Positions 691-27,534 of a stretch of DNA of 30,329 nucleotides are shown one piece after another. Position 1 is the first letter of the stretch, and every line of letters begins with the position of its first letter. Made by a program: the position numbers and the translations under genes. Under the pieces are notes generated by a model, which was given only the letters and a program-made list of their open reading frames with translations, was not told the origin of the DNA and ran no database searches. The stretch lies in the IMG/VR virus record IMGVR_UViG_2778261591_000021; one strand, 5' to 3'. Source of the stretch: a virus (lineage: Duplodnaviria > Heunggongvirae > Uroviricota > Caudoviricetes).

Positions 691-2298
691 TCAGTCCTCA
701 ATTAATTGCAGACGCTCAGTCATAGTTCGTTTGCCAAATGTTCTCGTCAACTCAATTTCTGCTGCCGCTTCACGGATATGACGTTGCAGCACGTAATTCA
801 CATCACTTTCAAGATAATCCCTGATAAGACTATCAGAAACATTTAATGTTCTTTCTTTCGTACTACCTGCGGCTTTTACAGAAAATACGCTGACAAAATC
901 CTGTGGAACCTTAGCACCAGTAATTTTATTAATTACGATATCCGCTGCAATTTCAGCATCCTCAGGATCCAGTGTTTTATTTCCTCTCGACCACCAGTCA
1001 ACCAAAATACGTCGAAATTTATCGCGTTCACTGATTATTTTTCCAACTTTATATATGCGTGGGAAATAGCTTGCCTGGCCTAATGCTTTCAGTTCTTCAT
1101 CTGGCGGCAATAAACCAAGCTTTTGCATTTCAACTTTCACCCGATTTAATACAGTTCGCATCGCCTGCGCCGTTTCCTGAACAACAGGATTAGCATGCAC
1201 ATCACCGCTTCGCATAGCATTCCCAACCTGCTGACGAAATGAATCAAAACTCATGTCACCACCATCAGCTTTATACTTTGCGTATGCCTGTTTATTTCCG
1301 ACAACAACAGCAGCTTCTTCACGCTGCCATCCACGTGTACGGGTTTCTACAGCTACCGGTGTTTCAATCCCCCTTTCATTTCCTTTAAGGGTGAAATTAT
1401 TTTCGGCTAACTCCAGCGCTGTTTTTCGCACCGTCTTGGACGGAGACTCCATTAACCTTGTCAAAGGAGTAAGATAGCTCCCTGCTTTCCATGCAGCCTT
1501 TCCAACCCACCCACCGGAAACAGGGGTTAAATCATCCAGAGCCGCTGTATCAATTTTCATAGCACCAACACTACCACCATCGGAAAGCGAAGCGGCAGCC
1601 CTGTCAGTCGCTGATGTAATGCTCATATTATCAAGAGCATCAGCAACCTCACGTGTGGCTGCAGCCCGGACGGATGGCGAAAGCGCAACACCAGCACTGG
1701 CAAACACGCCGCTCATCATCGCACCCGCTGCAACGTGAGCGGCACTTTCACCCCATGAGCGTGTTATTTGCTGATTATTCAGTACAACCTCGCTTAATGC
1801 TGTACCGGCAGCACCAATCGCAATCTGTGAGCCAATACGCGCCAGTGCCCCTCCTTGAGCACCGGGAATAAACATTGACGCAACAGTAACCGGATCCATT
1901 CCCGCAGCAATACTGGCAAGGGTTCCAACTACGCCAGCATCAGACAATAAACGTCTGTCTTCATTTTCATCATCTATCTGCTGCTTAATCCACGCCGTTT
2001 CCTCTGGCGATCGGGAATCTGCAAATTTCGCCCCCCAGTATTCATAACCGTGCAACTCATTTTTATCAGCATATGGGTTATAACCCTCGACCGGTTCAAA
2101 CTGTCTGGCTGGGCGGAAAAAACCAGACAGAATATTGTTCTGTCGCATTGCAGCCCCCCATACGGAAGGCTCAGGTGGCAATGGCTCAGGATTAGCCCCT
2201 TCCGGAAGGGCAACATCAAACCCAGTTTGTTCCGGCAAAACGTTACCTGACGGGATCAGTCCGTTATTAAGATCTTCAGCTTGTGCATAAACTGGCAT
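691..2298 (-). CDS. virion protein, 535 aa (internal virion/ejection protein or tail-associated)
   Basis: Last gene of the translationally coupled structural operon; its start overlaps the stop of the upstream 905-aa gene. Ala/Gly-rich. Function is assigned from position only. Confidence 0.4.
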   Translation of the reverse strand: MPVYAQAEDLNNGLIPSGNVLPEQTGFDVALPEGANPEPLPPEPSVWGAAMRQNNILSGFFRPARQFEPVEGYNPYADKNELHGYEYWGAKFADSRSPEETAWIKQQIDDENEDRRLLSDAGVVGTLASIAAGMDPVTVASMFIPGAQGGALARIGSQIAIGAAGTALSEVVLNNQQITRSWGESAAHVAAGAMMSGVFASAGVALSPSVRAAATREVADALDNMSITSATDRAAASLSDGGSVGAMKIDTAALDDLTPVSGGWVGKAAWKAGSYLTPLTRLMESPSKTVRKTALELAENNFTLKGNERGIETPVAVETRTRGWQREEAAVVVGNKQAYAKYKADGGDMSFDSFRQQVGNAMRSGDVHANPVVQETAQAMRTVLNRVKVEMQKLGLLPPDEELKALGQASYFPRIYKVGKIISERDKFRRILVDWWSRGNKTLDPEDAEIAADIVINKITGAKVPQDFVSVFSVKAAGSTKERTLNVSDSLIRDYLESDVNYVLQRHIREAAAEIELTRTFGKRTMTERLQLIED

Positions 2299-14272: not shown

Positions 14273-14309
14273 TTGACATTTAACGCACAAATTATTACCT
14301 TTCAGGTAA
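14273..14309 (+). promoter_or_regulatory. promoter-like TTGACA followed by a TTACC-N5-GGTAA operator-like palindrome
   Basis: TTGACA at 14273-14278; TTACCTTTCAGGTAA at 14295-14309. Same layout as the early promoter at 25090-25132. Points toward the structured region and tRNA. Confidence 0.45.
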
Positions 14310-14795: not shown

Positions 14796-14870
14796 AGCAG
14801 GACGCCATTGCGATGACTTCATGCTGTAAACCAGTACAGCCACGGAAGGCATAACTCATTGCTTCCAGTT

Positions 14871-14896
14871 CGCCCGGTTCGCCGGGCATTTTTTTG
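14871..14896 (+). terminator. rho-independent terminator
   Basis: GCCCGG-ttcg-CCGGGC stem followed by ATTTTTTT. Confidence 0.65.
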
Positions 14897-14900
14897 ATTG

Positions 14901-14929
14901 ATGACCGCAAATTACCTTAAAGGTATAAT
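14901..14929 (+). promoter_or_regulatory. promoter-like element with a perfect -10 TATAAT (14924-14929) overlapped by an operator-like palindrome
   Basis: Palindrome TTACCTTAAAGGTAT at 14912-14926; a possible -35 ATGACC lies 17 bp upstream of the -10. Sits immediately before the moron ORF. Confidence 0.4.
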
Positions 14930-14930
14930 C

Positions 14931-15749
14931 ATGAAAAACTTCAAGGTAATTAGCATGTTTGAATCGTTCAAAGAGCTGTTTTTATCTACTGCCAATACTG
15001 CCGTGAATCGAGCCAAAAACCCTGTGCTTGGTGCTTTTGTTATGTCCTGGTGCGCCTTCAACTGGAAATCAATTCTTTATCTATTTTTTAGCAAATCAAA
15101 CATAATAGATAAAATTTCATATATCTCAGATAACAGCACATGGAAAACTGTTATGTTTTATCCATGCTTATCTGTAATTGCTATCTGCTGCCTATTACCA
15201 TGGGTAAACAATATCATTAACGTATGGCAAGCAAAGCCTCTTGATAATAATGACTCAATCGAAAATCACCTGAAGGCAAGAAAAATCCAGCGTGAAACAA
15301 GACTGCAGAGGTTATTGGCTAAAAAAGATGTTACATACGACAAAGTTAAGACTGGCGCGGAAAAAGACATCCAAGAGATGAAAGAAGAGATTATTCGATC
15401 AAAGAATAGTATGGGGGAATTGACTGCCGAGTTGAAAGCTAAAGATGACGAATTGAGATCCGCCAGTGCACAGTTAGCAGCTCTAAATCATTCATTAAAA
15501 GAGATATCGGAAACTCTTGGAAGAATGAATGAGGCATATAAGACCCTCCAAAATGATTTCGACGAATACAAACTCAAATACCCTGAAAAATCTCAAATAA
15601 AAAGCCTTGCACTTGGCAACGGCCAAACAATTAGCAACGTTTTGGAGCAACACAACTTATCCGGATTAAAATCTGGTAAGCCAAACGTTTTTAATAACTT
15701 TGGTGTTCTATCTGGATTATCAGGTTTCGAGGATAAAAATAAAGACTAA
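14931..15749 (+). CDS. AT-rich accessory (moron) protein, 272 aa: two predicted TM helices plus a long coiled-coil domain; function unknown
   Basis: Opposite strand to all flanking structural genes and visibly AT-rich relative to them. ATG at 14931 has AAAGG upstream; the track ORF starts at TTG 14898. Hydrophobic segments are VLGAFVMSWCAFNWKSILYLFF and VMFYPCLSVIAICCLLPWV; heptad-like charged region from about residue 100 to 220. Confidence 0.6.
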   Translation: MKNFKVISMFESFKELFLSTANTAVNRAKNPVLGAFVMSWCAFNWKSILYLFFSKSNIIDKISYISDNSTWKTVMFYPCLSVIAICCLLPWVNNIINVWQAKPLDNNDSIENHLKARKIQRETRLQRLLAKKDVTYDKVKTGAEKDIQEMKEEIIRSKNSMGELTAELKAKDDELRSASAQLAALNHSLKEISETLGRMNEAYKTLQNDFDEYKLKYPEKSQIKSLALGNGQTISNVLEQHNLSGLKSGKPNVFNNFGVLSGLSGFEDKNKD

Positions 15750-17221: not shown

Positions 17222-17814
17222 TGATTACCATCCTGACGTTCTTTGAGTCGCTTCCTGGCTGCTGCTATGCGATCAGCAATTGTCACATTCACATTAACAT
17301 CCAGACGTTCTTTGAACGCGTTGACATCAACATGCTTACCAATCAGCTCAAGGTTCTTCACCTTGTCAGGCCATTTAATTTTTTTGAGGATTGTCTCTAT
17401 CGAATCCTCGTTCATGTTCATGATGGTCGATGACAGATCAAAGCCACTAAGCGTAGTGCGCCAGATTTTCGGCCACTCACGGATTGGTTTAAGGCTCCCA
17501 TCGTCGTTGAGGATGTCGATCACGTCCATCTGGTCGATCTCCACCAGGCGCATGAGAACGTAATCAGCACTGACGCGCATTCGTTTGTTGCGCTCCTCCA
17601 TCAACTCGGCAATCCGTTTTTGAATGCGTTCATCGCGCATCATGACACTGGCTTTAACTGCCGCTGTATTTGGGGAGAATCCTGCGTTAATCGCTGCCTG
17701 AGTCTGGTTTTCAGGCGTTTTGATGTATGACTGGCAATAAGCCTCCTGCATTGCTGTTAGTGGCTTAAATTGCGTTGATTTGCGTTTATAGGTTTTAGGT
17801 TCAGCAGGCATCAT
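17218..17814 (-). CDS. terminase small subunit
   Basis: Terminase small-subunit-like sequence with a basic helical C-terminus. Start re-assigned to the ATG at 17814, because the track's TTG-initiated extension to 17892 contains a terminator hairpin. Confidence 0.75.
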   Translation of the reverse strand: MMPAEPKTYKRKSTQFKPLTAMQEAYCQSYIKTPENQTQAAINAGFSPNTAAVKASVMMRDERIQKRIAELMEERNKRMRVSADYVLMRLVEIDQMDVIDILNDDGSLKPIREWPKIWRTTLSGFDLSSTIMNMNEDSIETILKKIKWPDKVKNLELIGKHVDVNAFKERLDVNVNVTIADRIAAARKRLKERQDGNQ

Positions 17815-17821
17815 AACCACC

Positions 17822-17853
17822 GTGGTAATAGTTACCGTTGTGGTAATAGTACC
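17822..17853. repeat. two direct repeats GTGGTAATAGT(T)ACC just upstream of the terminase small-subunit start
   Basis: Copies at 17822-17836 and 17840-17853. Each contains everted GGTAA/TTACC half-sites related to the operator palindrome. Confidence 0.5.
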
Positions 17854-18386: not shown

Positions 18387-18949
18387 CACTTCACCCCCTG
18401 CGGCGGTTCCGGTAGCGGCATCCAGTGGGTTACACCGCCAATTGGTTCATCGTCGTCGTACTCCAATGCGGATATATAGAACCCGTCACGACGAGAATAA
18501 GAAATCCCGGACATTACAATGCCATCCGAAACAACAATAATGTCACCCGTTTCTTCCGGCATTCGCTCACTACAGCTTATCCAACTATCCGGAGTTACCG
18601 GATAGTTGCGCATTGCGACCTTTAATGCCTCATAGAAGCAACCTTTCAGATTGTTGAACTGACGCCCATTTAGCGGGACGTGTTCAGTCAGCATGTTGTG
18701 TAATTTCCATGCCGCGTCGTTTACTTCGCTGGATGACAGGGGAGGCAACTTGTAAGTTTGGCTTACAGGTTCGGCACCATGAAGCATGGCGGCGCGGAGT
18801 TTCTGTATCTCCCGTGCCATTATTGCGTCCTGACGAGGAGTGAACATATCACCTGCAATAATTCTGTTTAGTTCCTCGTCAGTGAACTCATAATCATCAG
18901 GAACATTGTGAACCTCAGCATAAAGAGGCTTTTTGGTAGAAATGGTCAT
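18386..18949 (-). CDS. DUF551-type phage protein, 187 aa
   Basis: C-terminal region (ISCSERMPEE...DGFYIS...HWMPLPEPP) matches my recollection of DUF551 as found in lambdoid accessory genes. Confidence 0.5.
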   Translation of the reverse strand: MTISTKKPLYAEVHNVPDDYEFTDEELNRIIAGDMFTPRQDAIMAREIQKLRAAMLHGAEPVSQTYKLPPLSSSEVNDAAWKLHNMLTEHVPLNGRQFNNLKGCFYEALKVAMRNYPVTPDSWISCSERMPEETGDIIVVSDGIVMSGISYSRRDGFYISALEYDDDEPIGGVTHWMPLPEPPQGVK

Positions 18950-19569
18950 CGTAAAACATCCTCCGCACTTACCAGTGCGTTTCGCAAAAGATAATCCATC
19001 GCCCTATCTGGTAATTTGCAATCAGGTTTTGCTTTTTTCAGTTGGCTGACCAATTGTTTAACCAGCACTGTTAATTCGATAACTTGGTAGCGCGGCAATG
19101 GTGAATTATCAGATTTGCCCTGACTGTCTGCGCTGCATGAATGCCCTTCCAGCCATGCCAATGCTTGTCGCATGAAATACGCAATATGTTTGCCGTGGTA
19201 ATCGTCTTCATCGATGTGAAAAGCGATACTGCGGATGTATTCTATTGCATTTTCAATGGCCTCCAACGCTATCGGCGCTGGCGGTGCGGTATAAAACTTC
19301 GTCCCCAGCGGAAACAACTTCATCGCTTTTTCTCCCTTAATGATGCGATAAGTTGATTCTCCGCCAAGGTCTACCGTTCCATCCATAATAAGGCCGTATC
19401 GCTTCTCTGAAACTTCACCAATAGGATCTGCTTCCAGTGATGCCAGTGCAATTTTAAATGCGGTAAGCATGTTGCTTTGATCTTCATTGAGTCCGAACGG
19501 TATTTCATCCCGTGCTGACTCAATGCTGGTAATCGTTTTCTGTAGCCATTCTTTGGTAATAGTGGTCAT
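18946..19569 (-). CDS. hypothetical phage protein, 207 aa (Ead/Ea22-region type)
   Basis: Operon context with overlapping stop/start; acidic protein. Confidence 0.45.
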   Translation of the reverse strand: MTTITKEWLQKTITSIESARDEIPFGLNEDQSNMLTAFKIALASLEADPIGEVSEKRYGLIMDGTVDLGGESTYRIIKGEKAMKLFPLGTKFYTAPPAPIALEAIENAIEYIRSIAFHIDEDDYHGKHIAYFMRQALAWLEGHSCSADSQGKSDNSPLPRYQVIELTVLVKQLVSQLKKAKPDCKLPDRAMDYLLRNALVSAEDVLR

Positions 19570-19571
19570 AG

Positions 19572-19763
19572 CTATTTCACCTTAATCTCAACATTTCGCA
19601 GCTTTAGCTCTACTGGCAGGTCTGACTTTCCGGTTAATGCTAATGCGAGATTTTCTGGAGTAATGAGAGCAGTTATTGTTCTACCCATCGCCAGACGAAT
19701 AATCATTCGTATCTCGCAATCGTCACATGCTCCCGGTCGAACAATTGATATTTGTCCATTCAT
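19572..19763 (-). CDS. small hypothetical protein, 63 aa, with Cys pair (CDDC)
   Basis: ATG at 19763 lies directly after the upstream stop at 19765; the track ORF extends further upstream into the preceding gene. Confidence 0.35.
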   Translation of the reverse strand: MNGQISIVRPGACDDCEIRMIIRLAMGRTITALITPENLALALTGKSDLPVELKLRNVEIKVK

Positions 19764-19764
19764 C

Positions 19765-20481
19765 TCACACTCCTTTGATGCGAATGCCAGCGGCGCGGAT
19801 TGCATCGATGACTTCAGAAACTTTGTATGCCATTACCGTTTGGTAATCATCGTGAAAATCTGTTCGATGAAGCATGCTGCTACGTTCCGGGAGCAGTATT
19901 TCCCGATCCTCCAGTTCTGCTATGCGCTTCTCTGCTGATTCCAGCTTCTCGCGCATATCGTCAACGTACTCGACCAGAGAACCGCCAGCAGGAATTTCGC
20001 ACTCCTCGACCAGTTGGAAGTAGATATCAGCTGCGGCCCGTGTGTTGCTATGCCTAGCGTCGCCCATCTCACCTTCACGAAGAGCATCGCGTTCGGCGGT
20101 AAGATTGGCTATTTTGCTGTCTTTGCCTTCCAGCTCAACACGCAGCTTCCCTACCGTTAGCGCAATATCCTCGTTCTCCTGGTCGCGGCGTTTGATGTAT
20201 TGCTGGTTTCTTTCCCGTTCATCCAGTAGTGCCAAGACGGTAGCGGGATTGGCTGCGGCGATGAATTCAGCATTGGCCTGCTGTTCCATTTGGAAATCTT
20301 CATCGAAACCGCTTTCAGGATGCGCTCCTTCAATTCTGCAAATAGGAATATATCCAGCAACTTCACGATGAATTAGCGCATCATCACCATCAAATCGGCT
20401 CTCTCCATATTCGAGCGACCACTCACCACACGTTGCTTTTTCTGCCGCTTCACGCAGTGCCTGATAGTCAATCTTGCTCAC
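19765..20481 (-). CDS. Ea22-like protein, 238 aa
   Basis: Contains the block EFIAAANPATVLALLDERE recalled as characteristic of lambdoid Ea22-family proteins; central coiled coil. Confidence 0.5.
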   Translation of the reverse strand: MSKIDYQALREAAEKATCGEWSLEYGESRFDGDDALIHREVAGYIPICRIEGAHPESGFDEDFQMEQQANAEFIAAANPATVLALLDERERNQQYIKRRDQENEDIALTVGKLRVELEGKDSKIANLTAERDALREGEMGDARHSNTRAAADIYFQLVEECEIPAGGSLVEYVDDMREKLESAEKRIAELEDREILLPERSSMLHRTDFHDDYQTVMAYKVSEVIDAIRAAGIRIKGV

Positions 20482-20927
20482 TGGTTGCCTCCTTTGCGAA
20501 GCTGGGCAGCAAAGTCACGGATAGTGTCATCAAGGTCTGGGCACAACAGATGGTCAGCAAACATCTCCACGCCCTGCGCCCGTACTTCAGCCAGGAAAGC
20601 GTCGGTGGCTGGGGTGTCTGATTGCAGAGACTTTGCGCGATAGTCATTCCACCCTCTTGCATACATGGGATTAACTTGCACTCCATCTTTTACGCAATAT
20701 GCCTGCCCTCCACGGTTGATAAACTTGATTTCGTCCATAGCGCCAGACTTCAGCCCCGCATTCTCCGCTGCCAGCGCATTAGCACGCACCAGTTGCACTT
20801 CCAGTTGCGTTGCCAAATCGCTGATCAGCTTTGCCACACTGCGCATATCAACGGCACCACATTCTGCTTTCAGTTCCGAAGCCATCTCATGCCCGGCGGC
20901 AACTAACCCTTTGATATTACTTTCCAT
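20478..20927 (-). CDS. hypothetical protein, 149 aa
   Basis: ATG with GAGGG RBS, in operon. Confidence 0.45.
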   Translation of the reverse strand: MESNIKGLVAAGHEMASELKAECGAVDMRSVAKLISDLATQLEVQLVRANALAAENAGLKSGAMDEIKFINRGGQAYCVKDGVQVNPMYARGWNDYRAKSLQSDTPATDAFLAEVRAQGVEMFADHLLCPDLDDTIRDFAAQLRKGGNQ

Positions 20928-21950: not shown

Positions 21951-22027
21951 TTACCCCTGAGGTAATTAAAAACCACATAAGACACGAAATCAATAGATTT
22001 TAGTATATTTTATTACCCGCCAGGTAA
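21951..22027 (-). promoter_or_regulatory. internal promoter (TTGATT-N17-TTTAAT on the minus strand) flanked by two TTACC-N5-GGTAA operator-like palindromes
   Basis: Sites at 21951-21965 (overlaps the start region and RBS of the DUF1064 gene) and 22013-22027 (upstream of the -35). Confidence 0.45.
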
Positions 22028-22064: not shown

Positions 22065-22865
22065 TTACTTGATAAATCCTGCCGCCTTTCCCCGCCTGTA
22101 TTCCTCCATCAGCCACTGTGCCGGTGTTATTCCACCCAGGGTGGCGGCGTTAGGCATGCACCCGAAACTTCGCCCTGGTGGATGGTAAACGTCTCTCCCT
22201 GTGTCCGGAGGTGTACTCATGGGTTCTGGCTTTGCCTGTATGCTGATCACCGGATCGGGTATCTGCTGTCCGGAAGCCACCTTTTTCGCCCAATCATCGA
22301 GCAACCTGCGCGCGTGTTTCTCAACCTCAATCTCGCTAAGCTGGCGCTGATACATTGCACGGCGGGTATCACATACGACCCAGTACATAACCGGATGTCG
22401 CCACGGGAATCTTTCTGGACCACCAGGATATAAACTTTTTTCCTTGCTGTACCGGTGAAACTCCGCCATCACATCGTCAATGGTGACGCCAAGAACCATC
22501 TTGCTGTCTTTGCACCACTTGATGAATTGCCCAGGCGACGGCCAGAACGGAGATTCACTGGCGCGGGCGTGGCGCATACCAGCAGAAACCTGTTCACGGG
22601 TTCGGATCCCACCTTCGGCAAACGCAGCAATCCACTGCTGTTTTGCAGCAACTTCCTGCTCTGGCGTCTTCAGGTTGGTTACCACTGCCGCCGGAAACAG
22701 CTGTTTCAGCTGTTTGAAAAGGGCATCAACAAGCCTCTCTGCTGACATGTTCACCACATTGTCATTGTTGACGTACTGATGCTCATAACCTGACATGCGA
22801 GAAAGGGCTTCTCCGTCATGGTTTTGTATCGCGGTAAAAACGTTGTTCACAAGAAATCCTCCCAT
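22065..22865 (-). CDS. replication protein P-like (replicative helicase loader), 266 aa
   Basis: Recalled similarity to lambda P blocks (SPGQF.xWC, YP..FPW....YW.V, RRLLDDW...G..IP.PV) and position directly after the O-like gene. The first 19 nt overlap the O-like gene. Confidence 0.7.
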   Translation of the reverse strand: MGGFLVNNVFTAIQNHDGEALSRMSGYEHQYVNNDNVVNMSAERLVDALFKQLKQLFPAAVVTNLKTPEQEVAAKQQWIAAFAEGGIRTREQVSAGMRHARASESPFWPSPGQFIKWCKDSKMVLGVTIDDVMAEFHRYSKEKSLYPGGPERFPWRHPVMYWVVCDTRRAMYQRQLSEIEVEKHARRLLDDWAKKVASGQQIPDPVISIQAKPEPMSTPPDTGRDVYHPPGRSFGCMPNAATLGGITPAQWLMEEYRRGKAAGFIK

Positions 22866-23662
22866 GCTTCAGGGCTGTTCCAGTGCGGAACGTTGTTATC
22901 AGGTAATGTTGATTGCTTCTGTCTGCTAATCTGCAGCCGCCTTGCCAGCTTCTGCTCCCACTGTGCCTGATGGTATGCCTTACCCTCAGCCATCCAGTAA
23001 ATTCTGAACTCTGCAAGTTCCTGTGCCGTTGGCAGACTGTCCAGGTAGATCCCCTGCAATGAGCTTTTCCGAAGAAAGTCATCTGATGGCTGCCATTGTT
23101 CATGCATGACAAATTTGCCTAATTGCCCTGGCCCACCAGGAGGAACAAAGTTATTCATCACGGCGTTGTTTGCGCCGGGGTCATGATGCACAGAATCCCC
23201 GTTTTTTGTCCTGCTCTCCCTCTCTTGGTTAAATGACTGGTTATATGACTGGTTCTGGATCCCGTTTTTGGGATCATTCAACATCCCGTTTTTGGGATCA
23301 TTCAACATCCCGTTTTTGGGTATATTCCCGTTTTCGGGTATATTCCCGTTTTCGGGTTCATTGCCCCCCTCCCGGTTGCCTTTAATGTTCCCGTTTTTGG
23401 TTATATTAAGAGAGAAAACCCGCACTCTTTTTGTCGCTCCCTTTCTATCTCCGGTATCTGAAATAAGCCCCATTTTCATGAGCGATATAAGCCCGGCCTG
23501 CACGGTTTTTTTATTCAGGCAAGTGTCTTTAACGAGGCGTTCTATGCTGGGGTAGCAGAGGTTATATTCATCGGCTCTGTCAGCCATCGAGAGCAGTATG
23601 AGCTTTAATGATGAGCTACCTGGATCTGTCTCCCAGGCCCAATCTGTTGCATGTCTGCTCAT
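22847..23662 (-). CDS. replication initiator O-like protein with internal iteron array, 271 aa
   Basis: N-terminal HTH-type initiator region; central PENGNI/PKNGMLND peptide repeats are encoded by the DNA iterons; position before the P-like gene. Confidence 0.65.
   Translation of the reverse strand: MSRHATDWAWETDPGSSSLKLILLSMADRADEYNLCYPSIERLVKDTCLNKKTVQAGLISLMKMGLISDTGDRKGATKRVRVFSLNITKNGNIKGNREGGNEPENGNIPENGNIPKNGMLNDPKNGMLNDPKNGIQNQSYNQSFNQERESRTKNGDSVHHDPGANNAVMNNFVPPGGPGQLGKFVMHEQWQPSDDFLRKSSLQGIYLDSLPTAQELAEFRIYWMAEGKAYHQAQWEQKLARRLQISRQKQSTLPDNNVPHWNSPEAWEDFL
23259..23407. repeat. origin-like iteron array: six copies of core CCCGTTTT(T/C)GG, including two perfect 24-bp tandem units
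   Basis: Units ATCCCGTTTTTGGGATCATTCAAC at 23259-23282 and 23283-23306, with further copies near 23309, 23327, 23345 and 23390; a direct repeat ATGACTGGTT x2 is adjacent. Confidence 0.7.
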
Positions 23663-23958: not shown

Positions 23959-23973
23959 TTACCTTTGAGGTAC
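23959..23973. promoter_or_regulatory. operator-like palindrome TTACCTTTGAGGTAC
   Basis: Lies between the cro-like gene terminator and the Zn-finger gene. Confidence 0.4.
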
Positions 23974-23982
23974 GAATAGATA

Positions 23983-24007
23983 TGAAAAGACCGCCGGATG
24001 GCGGTCT
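23983..24007 (-). terminator. rho-independent terminator downstream of the cro-like gene (tR1-like position)
   Basis: Minus strand: 8-bp stem AGACCGCC-atcc-GGCGGTCT followed by TTTTC. Confidence 0.6.
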
Positions 24008-24028
24008 ACAGAGGGTTGTGGCTGGATA

Positions 24029-24259
24029 TCATGAGTAGAAGAAGTATGCCAATTCTGCTTTTGAGCGCAGCCATTGTCTTGTTTTACAGGCTTTAAAAAG
24101 CCCATTCATCAATACCTTACCTGGCATTTTGCGCTTACCTGTTAAGTGAGTCTGGATATAGTGACTCGTCGTTCCGGCTTCCTGTGCGAAGGCTTCACGC
24201 TCATCCGGAGTAAGTGCAAGCCAGTGCTTTTTGAAATCGAAATGTCCGTTATCGCTCAT
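24029..24259 (-). CDS. Cro-like HTH DNA-binding protein, 76 aa
   Basis: Divergent from the repressor-like gene across an operator-containing intergenic region; HTH-like segment EREAFAQEAGTTSHYIQTHLTGKR. Confidence 0.5.
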   Translation of the reverse strand: MSDNGHFDFKKHWLALTPDEREAFAQEAGTTSHYIQTHLTGKRKMPGKVLMNGLFKACKTRQWLRSKAELAYFFYS

Positions 24260-24295
24260 AGCTATTGCCTGATATTTATTTCAGATAATAAATAT

Positions 24296-24358
24296 TCACC
24301 CATAAGGTAACAAAAATCAAGGATAGTTACCTGTGGGGTGCATTTACCTGTTGGGTAA
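24296..24358. promoter_or_regulatory. immunity-region operator cluster: three TTACC-N5-GGTAA-type sites between the divergent cro-like and repressor-like genes
   Basis: TCACCCATAAGGTAA at 24296-24310, TTACCTGTGGGGTGC at 24327-24341, TTACCTGTTGGGTAA at 24344-24358. Confidence 0.55.
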
Positions 24359-24413
24359 TATTGCTTTAAATTGAATCATCTACTGATTCATATATGAGGC
24401 GATTTTCCAGAAA

Positions 24414-24998
24414 ATGAAAAGTATCCAGGACGTCCGCAGGCAAAATCTCAACGACTTGATCGACCGTGAATTCAATGGTGTTCAGACGCGGATGGCAGAA
24501 AAACTTGGAACTCAGGCAAATCTGGTAAACCGCTGGGCTCTTGGCAAGAAGGTTATCGGCGACCAGGTTGCGCGAAAAATTGAAGCTGCCGCCAATAAAC
24601 CCCGTAACTGGCTTGATATCGATCGCTCGCTTTCTCAGGAAGGTTTTCAGCCTGTCGGCCCAAGCGACATTGGTCAGCTGGCGGCTCACAACCTGGAACG
24701 CTGGATGAGCGAAAGCCGCGACCTTTCAACGCAGGGAAAACTTCACCGCGCATCCGGCGTCGCCCAGGTGACAATCAGTCGCCTGTTAAACAATGAGGTC
24801 AGCGTTTCCATTTCCACCCTGGAGAATGTTGCATCCGCATTCGGGCGTCACGGATATGAACTACTGATTCACCCGCACGACCCTGCGACTATCAACTATG
24901 ACCGCTCACGCTACGCATTGTTACCCGAAACCGAGAAAGCAAAGATCGAAAGTTACATTGAATTTGTCATCAACCAGAACGAAAAAAGCAAACAATAA
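24414..24998 (+). CDS. repressor-like protein with two tandem XRE-type HTH domains and no LexA/S24 peptidase domain, 194 aa
   Basis: HTH 1: TRMAEKLGTQANLVNRWALGKK. HTH 2: KLHRASGVAQVTISRLLNNEVSVSISTLENVASAFG. Occupies the cI position and is followed by its own terminator. Confidence 0.6.
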   Translation: MKSIQDVRRQNLNDLIDREFNGVQTRMAEKLGTQANLVNRWALGKKVIGDQVARKIEAAANKPRNWLDIDRSLSQEGFQPVGPSDIGQLAAHNLERWMSESRDLSTQGKLHRASGVAQVTISRLLNNEVSVSISTLENVASAFGRHGYELLIHPHDPATINYDRSRYALLPETEKAKIESYIEFVINQNEKSKQ

Positions 24999-25018
24999 AA
25001 CTATATTTTTCAGTAAGT

Positions 25019-25043
25019 AAGCCGCCTCATGGCGGCTTTTTTA
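25019..25043 (+). terminator. rho-independent terminator after the repressor-like gene
   Basis: AAGCCGCC-tcat-GGCGGCTT stem followed by TTTTATT. Confidence 0.65.
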
Positions 25044-25055
25044 TTGCCAGATAGA

Positions 25056-25132
25056 TTACCTTACGGGTAATTTTTTTAACTCATATCTATTGACACCAAA
25101 CCAAATAAGCATAATTATTACCTCAACGGTAA
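25056..25132 (+). promoter_or_regulatory. early-left-type promoter (TTGACA at 25090-25095) bracketed by two operator palindromes
   Basis: TTACCTTACGGGTAA at 25056-25070 and TTACCTCAACGGTAA at 25118-25132; the downstream site overlaps the -10 and transcription start region. Confidence 0.55.
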
Positions 25133-25151
25133 CAGACCGAGGTAACAAGTT

Positions 25152-25304
25152 ATGCAGTGGAAAATCATCAACGGTTGGTACTGCGTTACTGCATGCGGAT
25201 TCATGAGCTGGAAGTTCCGCACCTTACAGGAAGGCATTAAGTGGGCTTTCGTCAGCAAAGAAGCTCGCGATGTAGCCAACGATAACGAGATATGGGAGGG
25301 CTGA
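25152..25304 (+). CDS. small protein, 50 aa (MQWKIINGWYCVTACGF...)
   Basis: Not in the ORF track; ATG with GAGGT 9 nt upstream; first ORF of the early operon. Confidence 0.3.
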   Translation: MQWKIINGWYCVTACGFMSWKFRTLQEGIKWAFVSKEARDVANDNEIWEG

Positions 25305-25606: not shown

Positions 25607-26502
25607 TGCGGAACGCTGGAATCATGGATAGAACAAAATACATCGGAGGAAGCGATGTTGCAGGGATTCTTGGAATTAGCCCATGGCGCACCCCGCTTGA
25701 GGTTTATCTGGATAAGGTCCAGCCACGTGTCAAACCAGTAGACCCAAGCAAGCAGAAAGTTTTCACGCGTGGCCAGCGTATGGAGCCATACGTAATAGAC
25801 CTGCTTTCTGAGGAAACAGGGATGGAAATCGTTCATCGCGGAAACCGCTATATCCACCGTGATTACGATTTTATTGCAGCTGAGATCGATGCAGAAGCAG
25901 CGTCAGGCGAGAACATTGAGATCAAAACAGTTAGTCCGTTCAAAGCCAAAGAATGGGGAGAAATCCAGACAGATGCAATTCCTGTGCATTACACGGCCCA
26001 GGCCATGCACGGGTTGATGGTTACAAACAAACAGGTATGCGTTTTCGGTGTGCTTATCGGTGGCGACGACTTCCGAATCTATCGGGTTGAGCGTGATGAA
26101 GAAACTATCCAGGCGATCTTAGAAAAAGAAATCGCTTTCTGGGACCGAGTGAAAAATCTTAACCCGCCGGAAGCTGCCAGCGTAAGCGATGTATCGCTGA
26201 TGTTTGAGAAAGATGCCGGGACAAGTATCGAGGCTGACGGAAAGGCACTCGCACTATTCAACGATCTACGAGACATGAAATCACGCAGAAAATCACTGGA
26301 AGAAGAAATAGCTATATCAGAAGAGAAGCTGAAGATGTACATGCAAGAGCACTCAGTCCTGACCCTGGACGGAAAGCCGCTCTGCACATGGAAATCTCAG
26401 ATCAGCAACAGATTCGACCAGAAGCTATTCCAGTCAGTACACCCTGAGTTATTCGAAAAATTCAAAACAACAACGACACAACGCGTCTTCAGAATGAAGT
26501 AA
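25603..26502 (+). CDS. YqaJ-type viral recombinase exonuclease, 299 aa
   Basis: N-terminal YIGGSDVAGILGISPWRTPLEVY motif; paired with the downstream RecT gene; GAGGGA RBS. Confidence 0.75.
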   Translation: MMRNAGIMDRTKYIGGSDVAGILGISPWRTPLEVYLDKVQPRVKPVDPSKQKVFTRGQRMEPYVIDLLSEETGMEIVHRGNRYIHRDYDFIAAEIDAEAASGENIEIKTVSPFKAKEWGEIQTDAIPVHYTAQAMHGLMVTNKQVCVFGVLIGGDDFRIYRVERDEETIQAILEKEIAFWDRVKNLNPPEAASVSDVSLMFEKDAGTSIEADGKALALFNDLRDMKSRRKSLEEEIAISEEKLKMYMQEHSVLTLDGKPLCTWKSQISNRFDQKLFQSVHPELFEKFKTTTTQRVFRMK

Positions 26503-26511
26503 GGAGAAAAA

Positions 26512-27534
26512 ATGTCTATCAATGCACTTAAGGCAGCGGCTACCGGTAACCAAGTTGCACATCATAATGAGAAACCAACAACTCTGGCCGGACTTCTGGC
26601 AGACCCAAAAATTAAAGCTCAGATGGCTTTGGCACTTCCAAAGCACATGACAGCAGACCGTCTGGCGCGCATAGCAACCACAGAGATCCGAAAGGTTCCA
26701 AAACTTGCATCATGCGACCAAGCCAGCTTCCTGGGGGCAATTATGCAATGTGCCCAATTGGGTCTTGAACCAGGCGGAGCTCTTGGACACGCTTACCTGA
26801 TACCGTTCGACAAACGCCAGAAAGTAAATGGAAGATGGGAAACCGTATCTACAGAAGCACAGCTGATTATCGGCTATCGCGGAATGATTGACCTTGCCCG
26901 CCGCTCTGGGCAGATCCTGAGTATCTCGGCTCGTACCGTACATACAAACGACAAATTCAGCTACTCATACGGCCTGGAAGAAACGCTCGAGCATTTACCT
27001 TGCGAAACAGGTGACCGCGGAGAATTAACGCACGTTTACGCCGTTGCACGACTGAAAGATGGCGGAGTCCAATTTGAAGTTATGAGCCGGGCAGACATTG
27101 AGAAAGTTCGTGCACTGAGCAAAGCCGGTAGCAGTGGCCCATGGGTTGATCACTTCGATGAGATGGCTAAAAAAACAGTAATTCGCCGACTATTCAAATA
27201 TCTTCCTGTTTCTATTGAAATGCAGAAGGCTGTTGTTATGGATGAGCGCGCTGAAGCTGGACTTAGCCAAGATAACGCAGCTGTTATCACTGGTGAATAT
27301 TCCGTAGTTGACGATGAGCGTCAACACCTGTCGCCAATTTCAGATTCAGAACGAGAAGAAGCTCGAGAATATATCATCGCGATACTTAATAGCCTGGATC
27401 CATCTGCTGAAGATGCAAAAACGATGTTCAAGCGCGCTGAAAATGAGATTAACACCATGGCTGAAAAGCTCGGTGATGAATATCACCAAAAATTCATGAT
27501 GACGCTTAACGATATGCGTCAAGAATTCGAGTAA
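26512..27534 (+). CDS. recT: RecT-family single-strand annealing protein, 340 aa
   Basis: RecT-like core (ASCDQASFLGAIMQCAQLGLEPGG...AYLIPF); AAGGAG RBS; follows the YqaJ exonuclease gene. Confidence 0.8.
   Translation: MSINALKAAATGNQVAHHNEKPTTLAGLLADPKIKAQMALALPKHMTADRLARIATTEIRKVPKLASCDQASFLGAIMQCAQLGLEPGGALGHAYLIPFDKRQKVNGRWETVSTEAQLIIGYRGMIDLARRSGQILSISARTVHTNDKFSYSYGLEETLEHLPCETGDRGELTHVYAVARLKDGGVQFEVMSRADIEKVRALSKAGSSGPWVDHFDEMAKKTVIRRLFKYLPVSIEMQKAVVMDERAEAGLSQDNAAVITGEYSVVDDERQHLSPISDSEREEAREYIIAILNSLDPSAEDAKTMFKRAENEINTMAEKLGDEYHQKFMMTLNDMRQEFE

Follow-up and report, generated by a model that had tools for sequence, protein, structure and literature searches.

A Rep-family immunity repressor, probably antirepressor-controlled, in an IS629-interrupted prophage of the phiV10/epsilon15 type

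The immunity locus and its relatives

Analysis of a 30,329-nucleotide stretch of tailed-phage DNA (IMG/VR record IMGVR_UViG_2778261591_000021, hereafter the window) placed a gene for a predicted 194-amino-acid repressor, here named rep, next to a divergently oriented gene for a small early regulator.

24414..24998, plus strand: rep, predicted 194-aa immunity repressor, with exact coordinates from the ORF listing; ortholog of phiV10 gp40, epsilon15 gp38 and SPC32H Rep
24029..24259, minus strand: gene for a cro-like early regulator of 76 aa, oriented divergently to rep; matches phrog_35 'transcriptional repressor' (E=5.6e-13) and is the ortholog of phiV10 gp41

To the left of rep, on the opposite strand, the cro-like gene is followed by O-like and P-like replication genes, and to the right lie a small gene and the exonuclease and RecT genes of one operon, with an integrase gene at the end of the window. 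Lying between the divergent cro-like gene and the exo/RecT operon, rep takes the place that cI has in a lambdoid-style gene order. The DNA from 24000 to 25300 is 97-98.5% identical to phiV10, TL-2011b, vB_EcoP_ZX5, HEMP4 and other Escherichia coli phages, and those relatives for which the taxonomy was looked up belong to the genus Uetakevirus. The element is a Uetakevirus-like prophage of the phiV10/TL-2011b/epsilon15 type.

Two neighbouring modules deserve separate mention. The O-like replication protein (22847-23662, minus strand) contains tandem peptide repeats, NGNIPE/NGNIPK followed by NGMLNDPK twice, which correspond to direct DNA repeats within the gene and possibly represent origin iterons as in lambda O. 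The genes for the exonuclease (299 aa) and RecT (340 aa), located at 25607-27530, have no nucleotide similarity to phiV10, for which a single RecE-RecT fusion is annotated, and their product sizes match those of epsilon15 exo and RecT, which suggests that the recombination module was replaced in mosaic fashion.

At the protein level, Rep is 99-100% identical to the repressors of the phiV10 group, including phiV10 gp40 (99.5%), ZX5 ORF21 (99.5%) and TL-2011b gp10. Identity amounts to 75-78% for the repressors of two Enterobacter phages and to 43-45% for those of Klebsiella phages and of the Salmonella phages epsilon15, SPN1S and SPC32H, with the SPC32H protein aligning at 43% identity over 99% of the query (tblastn). 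A phmmer search aligned Rep residues 1-190 end to end with residues 2-197 of the repressor chain in PDB 5D50, the SPC32H Rep-Ant complex (E=3.5e-42), and PDB 5D4Z, which comprises SPC32H Rep residues 92-198, was matched as well (E=3.6e-20). Domain by domain, 53% of the N-terminal, 34% of the middle and 44% of the C-terminal residues are identical to those of SPC32H Rep. The public records point the same way: the RefSeq note on phiV10 gp40 reads 'two helix-turn-helix motifs (PF01381); similar to putative repressor epsilon15p38', and in the epsilon15 GenBank record gp38 is noted to match 5D50 by HHpred. When ZX5 ORF21 was overexpressed, free phage disappeared and the transcripts for endolysin and holin fell by more than 99.9% (PMC9782041). 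On the basis of this homology, we assign the 194-aa protein to the SPC32H Rep family and regard it as the repressor responsible for lysogeny (immunity) in this prophage of the phiV10/epsilon15 type.

Domain architecture of Rep

In the whole protein, Pfam HTH_3 matches in two stretches. When the parts were scanned separately, residues 1-77 stayed below threshold (HTH_3 16 bits, E=0.012, against a cut-off of 23 bits; YdaS E=3.7e-4, likewise sub-threshold), whereas residues 82-154 exceeded it for both HTH_3 (27 bits, cut-off 23) and HTH_26 (26 bits, cut-off 22); the last 49 residues had no Pfam match in this piecewise scan. Despite its sub-threshold HTH_3 score, the N-terminal module matched several repressor PHROGs as well as the DNA-binding domain (DBD) of 5D50. 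Alignment to the two SPC32H structures divides the protein into three parts.

24414..24629, plus strand: N-terminal HTH DNA-binding domain, Rep residues 1-72 (matched to 5D50 residues 2-74, E=1.5e-18)
24678..24872, plus strand: middle HTH-like module, Rep residues 89-153, corresponding to the Rep-family dimerisation domain (MDD; matched to 5D4Z residues 4-67, E=3.9e-9)
24873..24995, plus strand: C-terminal domain corresponding to the tetramerisation and Ant-binding domain (CAD/TetDloop), Rep residues 154-194 (aligned with 5D50/5D4Z through residue 190)

Literature citing the original SPC32H work describes Rep of this phage as an N-terminal DBD and a C-terminal p53-like tetramerisation domain (CAD/TetDloop) with the MDD between them, and states that the CAD also binds Ant and that F187 and F190 form the tetramer interface (PMC9986798). 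With its modules matched separately to 5D50 and 5D4Z, Rep shows the same order of HTH DBD, dimerisation domain and tetramerisation/Ant-binding domain. In the protein studied here, Y181 and F184 stand at the positions of F187 and F190, and F184 is invariant in 40 homologs. An AlphaFold2 model built from the 40 homologs (pLDDT 76.6) retrieved 5D50 and 5D4Z as the top Foldseek matches in the PDB, with a TM score of 0.75 on 5D4Z, followed by other HTH-type regulators.

The two HTH-like modules differ considerably from each other. In the N-terminal domain, the NLVNRW helix is conserved with SPC32H Rep, and N36, R40 and W41 are invariant in the alignment of 40 homologs. Within the phiV10-like subfamily the middle module carries near-invariant Q107 and Q118 and an invariant R123; Q107 and Q118 are replaced by E and P in SPC32H Rep, with the operator half-site unchanged. 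The net charge is +5 for the N-terminal module and 0 for the middle one. A recent tandem duplication inside Rep was considered as the origin of the two modules and rejected, since the N-terminal and C-terminal halves gave no BLASTP alignment; the family profiles of both modules align weakly and over the HTH motif only (residues 23-47 against 106-130, hhalign local E=0.0013).

Absence of a self-cleavage module

The self-cleavage module of LexA/CI-type repressors is absent from Rep. No Peptidase_S24 match was obtained with Pfam at E<=1, the protein contains neither an Ala-Gly nor a Cys-Gly dipeptide, the AlphaFold2 model is entirely helical, and no S24 peptidase appears among the 50 listed Foldseek PDB matches of the model. 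A prior sequence-only reading of the locus had described an immunity repressor candidate at the cI position with two HTH modules and no Ala-Gly/Ser-Lys peptidase module, and had named a cryptic S24 fold in the C-terminal half as an observation that would speak against it. These points hold: homology to the phiV10-group repressors and SPC32H Rep identifies the protein as an immunity repressor, HTH_3 finds two stretches (taken alone, the middle one above and the N-terminal one below the cut-off), and the C-terminal region aligns with 5D50/5D4Z, with no S24 fold detected.

Operators, promoters and terminators

The motif TTACC-N5-GGTAA occurs in 7 perfect copies in the window against 0.01 expected, and with up to two mismatches in 26 copies against 8.5 expected. 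All seven perfect palindromes are intergenic, at OR, at OL and at operon boundaries. Around rep, the following elements were located.

24296-24310, 24327-24341 and 24344-24358, no strand assigned: OR, three operator palindromes in the rep/cro intergenic region, spaced 31 and 17 bp from centre to centre
24285..24313, minus strand: putative PR-like promoter of the cro-like gene, TTGTTA-17-TATTAT, predicted by consensus scan
25019..25038, plus strand: intrinsic terminator 3' of rep, annotated at the same place in phiV10
25056-25070 and 25118-25132, plus strand: OL/PL operators, 62 bp apart, flanking a predicted promoter TTGACA-17-AATTAT (25090-25118)
23988-24007, minus strand: strong intrinsic terminator immediately 3' of the cro-like gene, which it separates from the next early gene and from the replication genes
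23959..23973, no strand assigned: operator-like palindrome with one mismatch, beyond the terminator of the cro-like gene; phiV10 equivalent at 33112

Palindromic operators of the family type, ATTACC-N5-GGTAAT, are thus present at both OR and OL. The operator at 24296-24310 falls inside the spacer of the predicted PR-like promoter and overlaps its -35 element, and the downstream OL operator begins at the last -10 base of the predicted PL. SPC32H uses the same half-sites, spaced 30 and 17 bp at OR and 62 bp at OL; the equivalent of the OL/PL region carries annotated repressor binding sites in the epsilon15 GenBank record. The terminator at 23988-24007 followed by an operator-like site suggests that the replication operon is transcribed either through antitermination or from a promoter of its own under Rep control.

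Further copies of the motif are scattered over the window.

21951-21965 and 22013-22027, minus strand: second operator pair, 62 bp apart, before the operon downstream of the replication genes
17814-17828 (one mismatch) and 17832-17846 (perfect), no strand assigned: adjacent operator-like palindromes just upstream of the small terminase gene
14295..14309, no strand assigned: perfect, intergenic operator palindrome upstream of the head-gene block
14912..14926, plus strand: operator-like palindrome with one mismatch, inside a promoter-like ATGACC-17-TATAAT (14901-14929) of the accessory gene at 14931-15749

The pair at 21951/22013 has a PL-like geometry, with the promoter read by eye, and pairs of this type, also 62 bp apart, occupy equivalent positions in phiV10, TL-2011b and SPC32H; in the epsilon15 record, one annotated site after the replication gene is comparable. 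The sites upstream of the small terminase gene have equivalents in phiV10 and TL-2011b and one annotated counterpart in epsilon15, and the site at 14295 corresponds to phiV10 3252, TL-2011b 14819 and the annotated epsilon15 site at 2931-2947. The scattered pattern as such is conserved in phiV10, TL-2011b and SPC32H. We also note a spacing of 62 bp for two of the site pairs and of 17-18 bp for two others, and that the Rep-type sites beyond OR and OL, near-perfect ones included, are intergenic and lie at or near operon boundaries.

We considered whether these genome-wide operators constitute a new finding and rejected this, since the epsilon15 GenBank record already labels such sites as 'repressor' binding sites: its annotated 17-bp sites lie at OL, ahead of both terS and gp3, between ant and the tailspike gene, and behind the replication gene.

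The accessory gene next to the 14912 site (14931-15749, plus strand) encodes 272 aa of phrog_4780, a group of unknown function, on the strand opposite to the virion genes, and window positions 14896-15743 have no nucleotide match in phiV10. It is likely an accessory gene (moron) and possibly under Rep control.

State of the prophage and the antirepressor gene

The first 690 positions of the window are the end of an IS629 copy (IS3 family), 100% identical to the copy in phage BP-4795. The insertion truncates the ortholog of TL-2011b gp38 (691-2298, minus strand), the gene of a 1004-aa virion protein, after codon 535, and the source draft contig (GCA_002459835.1, NJUJ01000012.1) begins at IS629. 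A search of complete E. coli genomes did not recover this IS629 junction. Given the truncation of this virion gene, the prophage is probably defective for virion production.

A search of the window for the antirepressor gene ant with SPC32H Ant (tblastn) gave nothing better than E=2, and no antirepressor PHROG was matched by any of 10 accessory ORFs scanned. For the LexA box, CTGT-N8-ACAG has two matches in the window (10282 and 14824) against 0.49 expected, which is not significant, and at least the one at 14824 lies inside an ORF. That ant is missing from the window follows from its location in the relatives, where it lies past the virion genes and thus beyond IS629 and the contig end at window position 1. 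In SPC32H, ant (SPC32H_020, 86 aa, 18754-19014) is found between the tailspike gene and virion-protein genes; phiV10 gp24 (20543-20800) is an Ant ortholog about 88% identical to SPC32H Ant (tblastn); and in TL-2011b ant lies about 7 kb beyond the point equivalent to the IS629 interruption. Directly upstream of phiV10 ant is a near-consensus LexA box, TACTGTGTATTTATACAGTT, with a Rep-type operator about 60 bp further upstream, and the SPC32H and TL-2011b genes show the same arrangement with a near-consensus LexA box (TACTGT-N8-ACAGT) directly upstream. Among phage records, Ant homologs were found in 35, compared with 36 that contain a full-length Rep homolog. In this strain, Ant may be absent or displaced.

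Ant is far more conserved than its target: comparison of E. coli with Salmonella phages gives about 88% identity and comparison with Klebsiella phages 60-65%, against 43-45% for Rep across these phages. The relatives also contain further antirepressor-like genes near ant (TL-2011b 31060-32244 and 33420-34115; phiV10 19646-20230): TL-2011b has an Arc-like repressor and a P22-type Ant, and Bro-N proteins occur in both TL-2011b and phiV10. The ZX5 publication names the Bro-N protein ORF4, not the small SPC32H-type Ant, as antirepressor (PMC9782041).

Proposed mechanism and alternative readings

For SPC32H, publications citing the primary work state that Ant is made after SOS-induced LexA cleavage (PMC7380047), that Rep binds DNA as a tetramer whose paired DNA-binding domains come from different dimers (PMC9638917), and that tetrameric Ant binds two Rep dimers and breaks the DNA-binding tetramer (PMC9638917). 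We consider it highly probable that the repressor described here is a Rep-family protein that works in the same way, as a tetramer on palindromic sites and with induction through a LexA-controlled Ant instead of self-cleavage. Direct support comes from the homology, the way the domains are arranged, the lack of an S24 module, the statistics and placement of the operator motif and the finding that the closest complete relatives have ant together with a LexA box. That Rep binds as a tetramer, that its middle domain dimerises and that Ant acts as described is carried over from secondary descriptions of the homolog.

According to this model, the N-terminal HTH domain would recognise the TTACC half-site, the middle HTH-like domain would make Rep dimers, and the C-terminal strand-plus-helix domain would join two dimers into a tetramer. 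Pairs of N-terminal domains of the tetramer would then occupy the 15-17 bp palindromes, three over PR at OR, two flanking PL at OL and further ones at intergenic sites, and this occupancy would keep the lytic transcription units silent. Upon DNA damage, cleavage of LexA would derepress the small ant gene (~85 aa) with its LexA box, and an Ant tetramer would bind the C-terminal domains of two Rep dimers and capture the N-terminal domains, so that Rep would leave the DNA.

The competing view of the protein takes the name of its domains literally, so that both HTH modules of one chain contact DNA and the protein, as monomer or dimer, would use them in tandem on a spaced palindromic or composite operator. 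This is what the sequence-only reading had proposed, and it can draw on the middle module exceeding the HTH_3 and HTH_26 thresholds and scoring better than the N-terminal one, on the hallmark residues retained in the phiV10-like subfamily (Q107 and Q118 nearly invariant, R123 invariant) and on the ZX5 publication, which assumes that the C-terminal HTH is the DNA-binding part (PMC9782041). However, the corresponding module of the solved homolog is described as a dimerisation domain (PMC9986798). Identical half-sites one helical turn apart lead us to expect a symmetric pair of one HTH type; two identical 5-bp half-sites need two copies of one HTH, and the two modules of Rep lack pairwise similarity. 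As judged from the sequences, the shared half-site fits the conserved NLVNRW helix of the N-terminal domain. The middle module is moreover electrically neutral, against +5 on the N-terminal module, and SPC32H Rep has E and P in place of Q107 and Q118 and nonetheless uses the same half-site. We thus regard a tandem-HTH mode of binding as highly improbable, and about equally slim is the chance that in the phiV10-like subfamily the middle module, given its above-threshold HTH scores and its near-invariant residues, might still contact DNA besides dimerising, either non-specifically or at a second kind of site. If it did, the extra contacts of the tetramer would help to bridge the scattered operator pairs, which would differ from the published SPC32H model. 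The sequence-only reading therefore stands in its observations and, as regards interpretation, in part: its proposal that induction requires an antirepressor or another signal, with no obvious antirepressor gene in the window, agrees with the published account of the homologous SPC32H Rep/Ant system (PMC7380047, PMC9638917) and with the tblastn and PHROG searches, whereas its match between a tandem-HTH protein and a spaced palindromic operator does not hold up against the MDD of the homolog, the symmetric half-sites and the dissimilar, differently charged modules.

Two other possibilities bear on induction. Rep could harbour a cryptic self-cleavage activity and be induced directly by RecA*, as lambda CI is, which is scarcely conceivable in view of the missing S24 match, the missing cleavage dipeptides and the all-helical model: all of Rep beyond the DBD aligns with the helical MDD and CAD of 5D4Z, and the homolog is described as antirepressor-controlled (PMC7380047, PMC9638917). 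Alternatively, the Rep/Ant switch may be broken in this strain, if an IS629-associated rearrangement removed or separated ant and left Rep to act solely for stable immunity in a prophage that is defective and non-inducible. The IS629 end at 100% identity, the virion gene cut after codon 535, the assembly contig stopping at IS629 and the lack of ant within the window are all in line with such an event. But a contig break at an IS copy is normal in draft assemblies and fits equally well with a simple insertion that the rest of the prophage follows, and viable phages share 97-98% identity with the immunity region, which is intact here. We consider a broken switch unlikely, though less so than the other alternatives; it would concern the state of the prophage and not the mechanism of the repressor.

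Comparison with known systems

Returning to the Rep/Ant model, SPC32H provides a close precedent: its repressor is a full-length homolog of the same length, with the same three-domain order, a conserved recognition helix and the same genome position, the operators share half-sites and spacings at OR and OL (31/17 bp at OR here, 30/17 in SPC32H), and the closest relatives of this prophage carry an ant ortholog about 88% identical to that of SPC32H and preceded by a LexA box. The two differ in that Rep is 43% identical overall and that OL has two sites here but three in SPC32H. For the gene itself there is essentially no difference to phiV10 gp40, ZX5 ORF21 and TL-2011b gp10; unlike in those phages, the prophage studied here is interrupted by IS629 and has a different recombination module and different accessory genes. 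The epsilon15 major repressor gp38 is 43% identical and is accompanied by the same scattered operator pattern, although its host is different and its sequence has diverged.

Beyond these relatives, coliphage 186 CI/Tum and the Gifsy repressor/antirepressor pairs follow the same logic, in which a small antirepressor encoded by a LexA-repressed gene switches off a repressor that is not cleavable. We cite them as an analogy, with no claim of sequence relationship; 186 CI has a different C-terminal oligomerisation domain. Lambda CI and LexA (S24) represent the opposite solution: CI shares the genome position, the N-terminal HTH and the multiple cooperative operators at OR and OL, whereas Rep is without an S24 domain or cleavage site and is expected to oligomerise via an HTH-like dimer domain and a p53-like tetramer domain. 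Another TetDloop repressor, Rco of plasmid pLS20, combines an N-terminal HTH DBD with a C-terminal p53-like tetramerisation domain and is antagonised by a protein partner (PMC9986798). Unlike Rep, Rco is without the middle dimerisation domain, and no sequence similarity of the tetramer domains is claimed.

Implications

The feature analysed here is already known, given the crystal structure of the homolog, the phiV10 note on two HTH motifs and the annotated operators in the sister phage epsilon15. What matters in practice for the strain is whether ant survives in the IS629-interrupted prophage and allows SOS induction. For the gene, the correct label is that of a Rep-family, antirepressor-controlled immunity repressor, and not of a generic HTH protein or a 'VapI antidote'; beyond annotation, this has little significance. 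More generally, 'two HTH domains' obtained from a domain search can mislead, because one of the HTH-like folds of Rep-family proteins has become a module for dimerisation.
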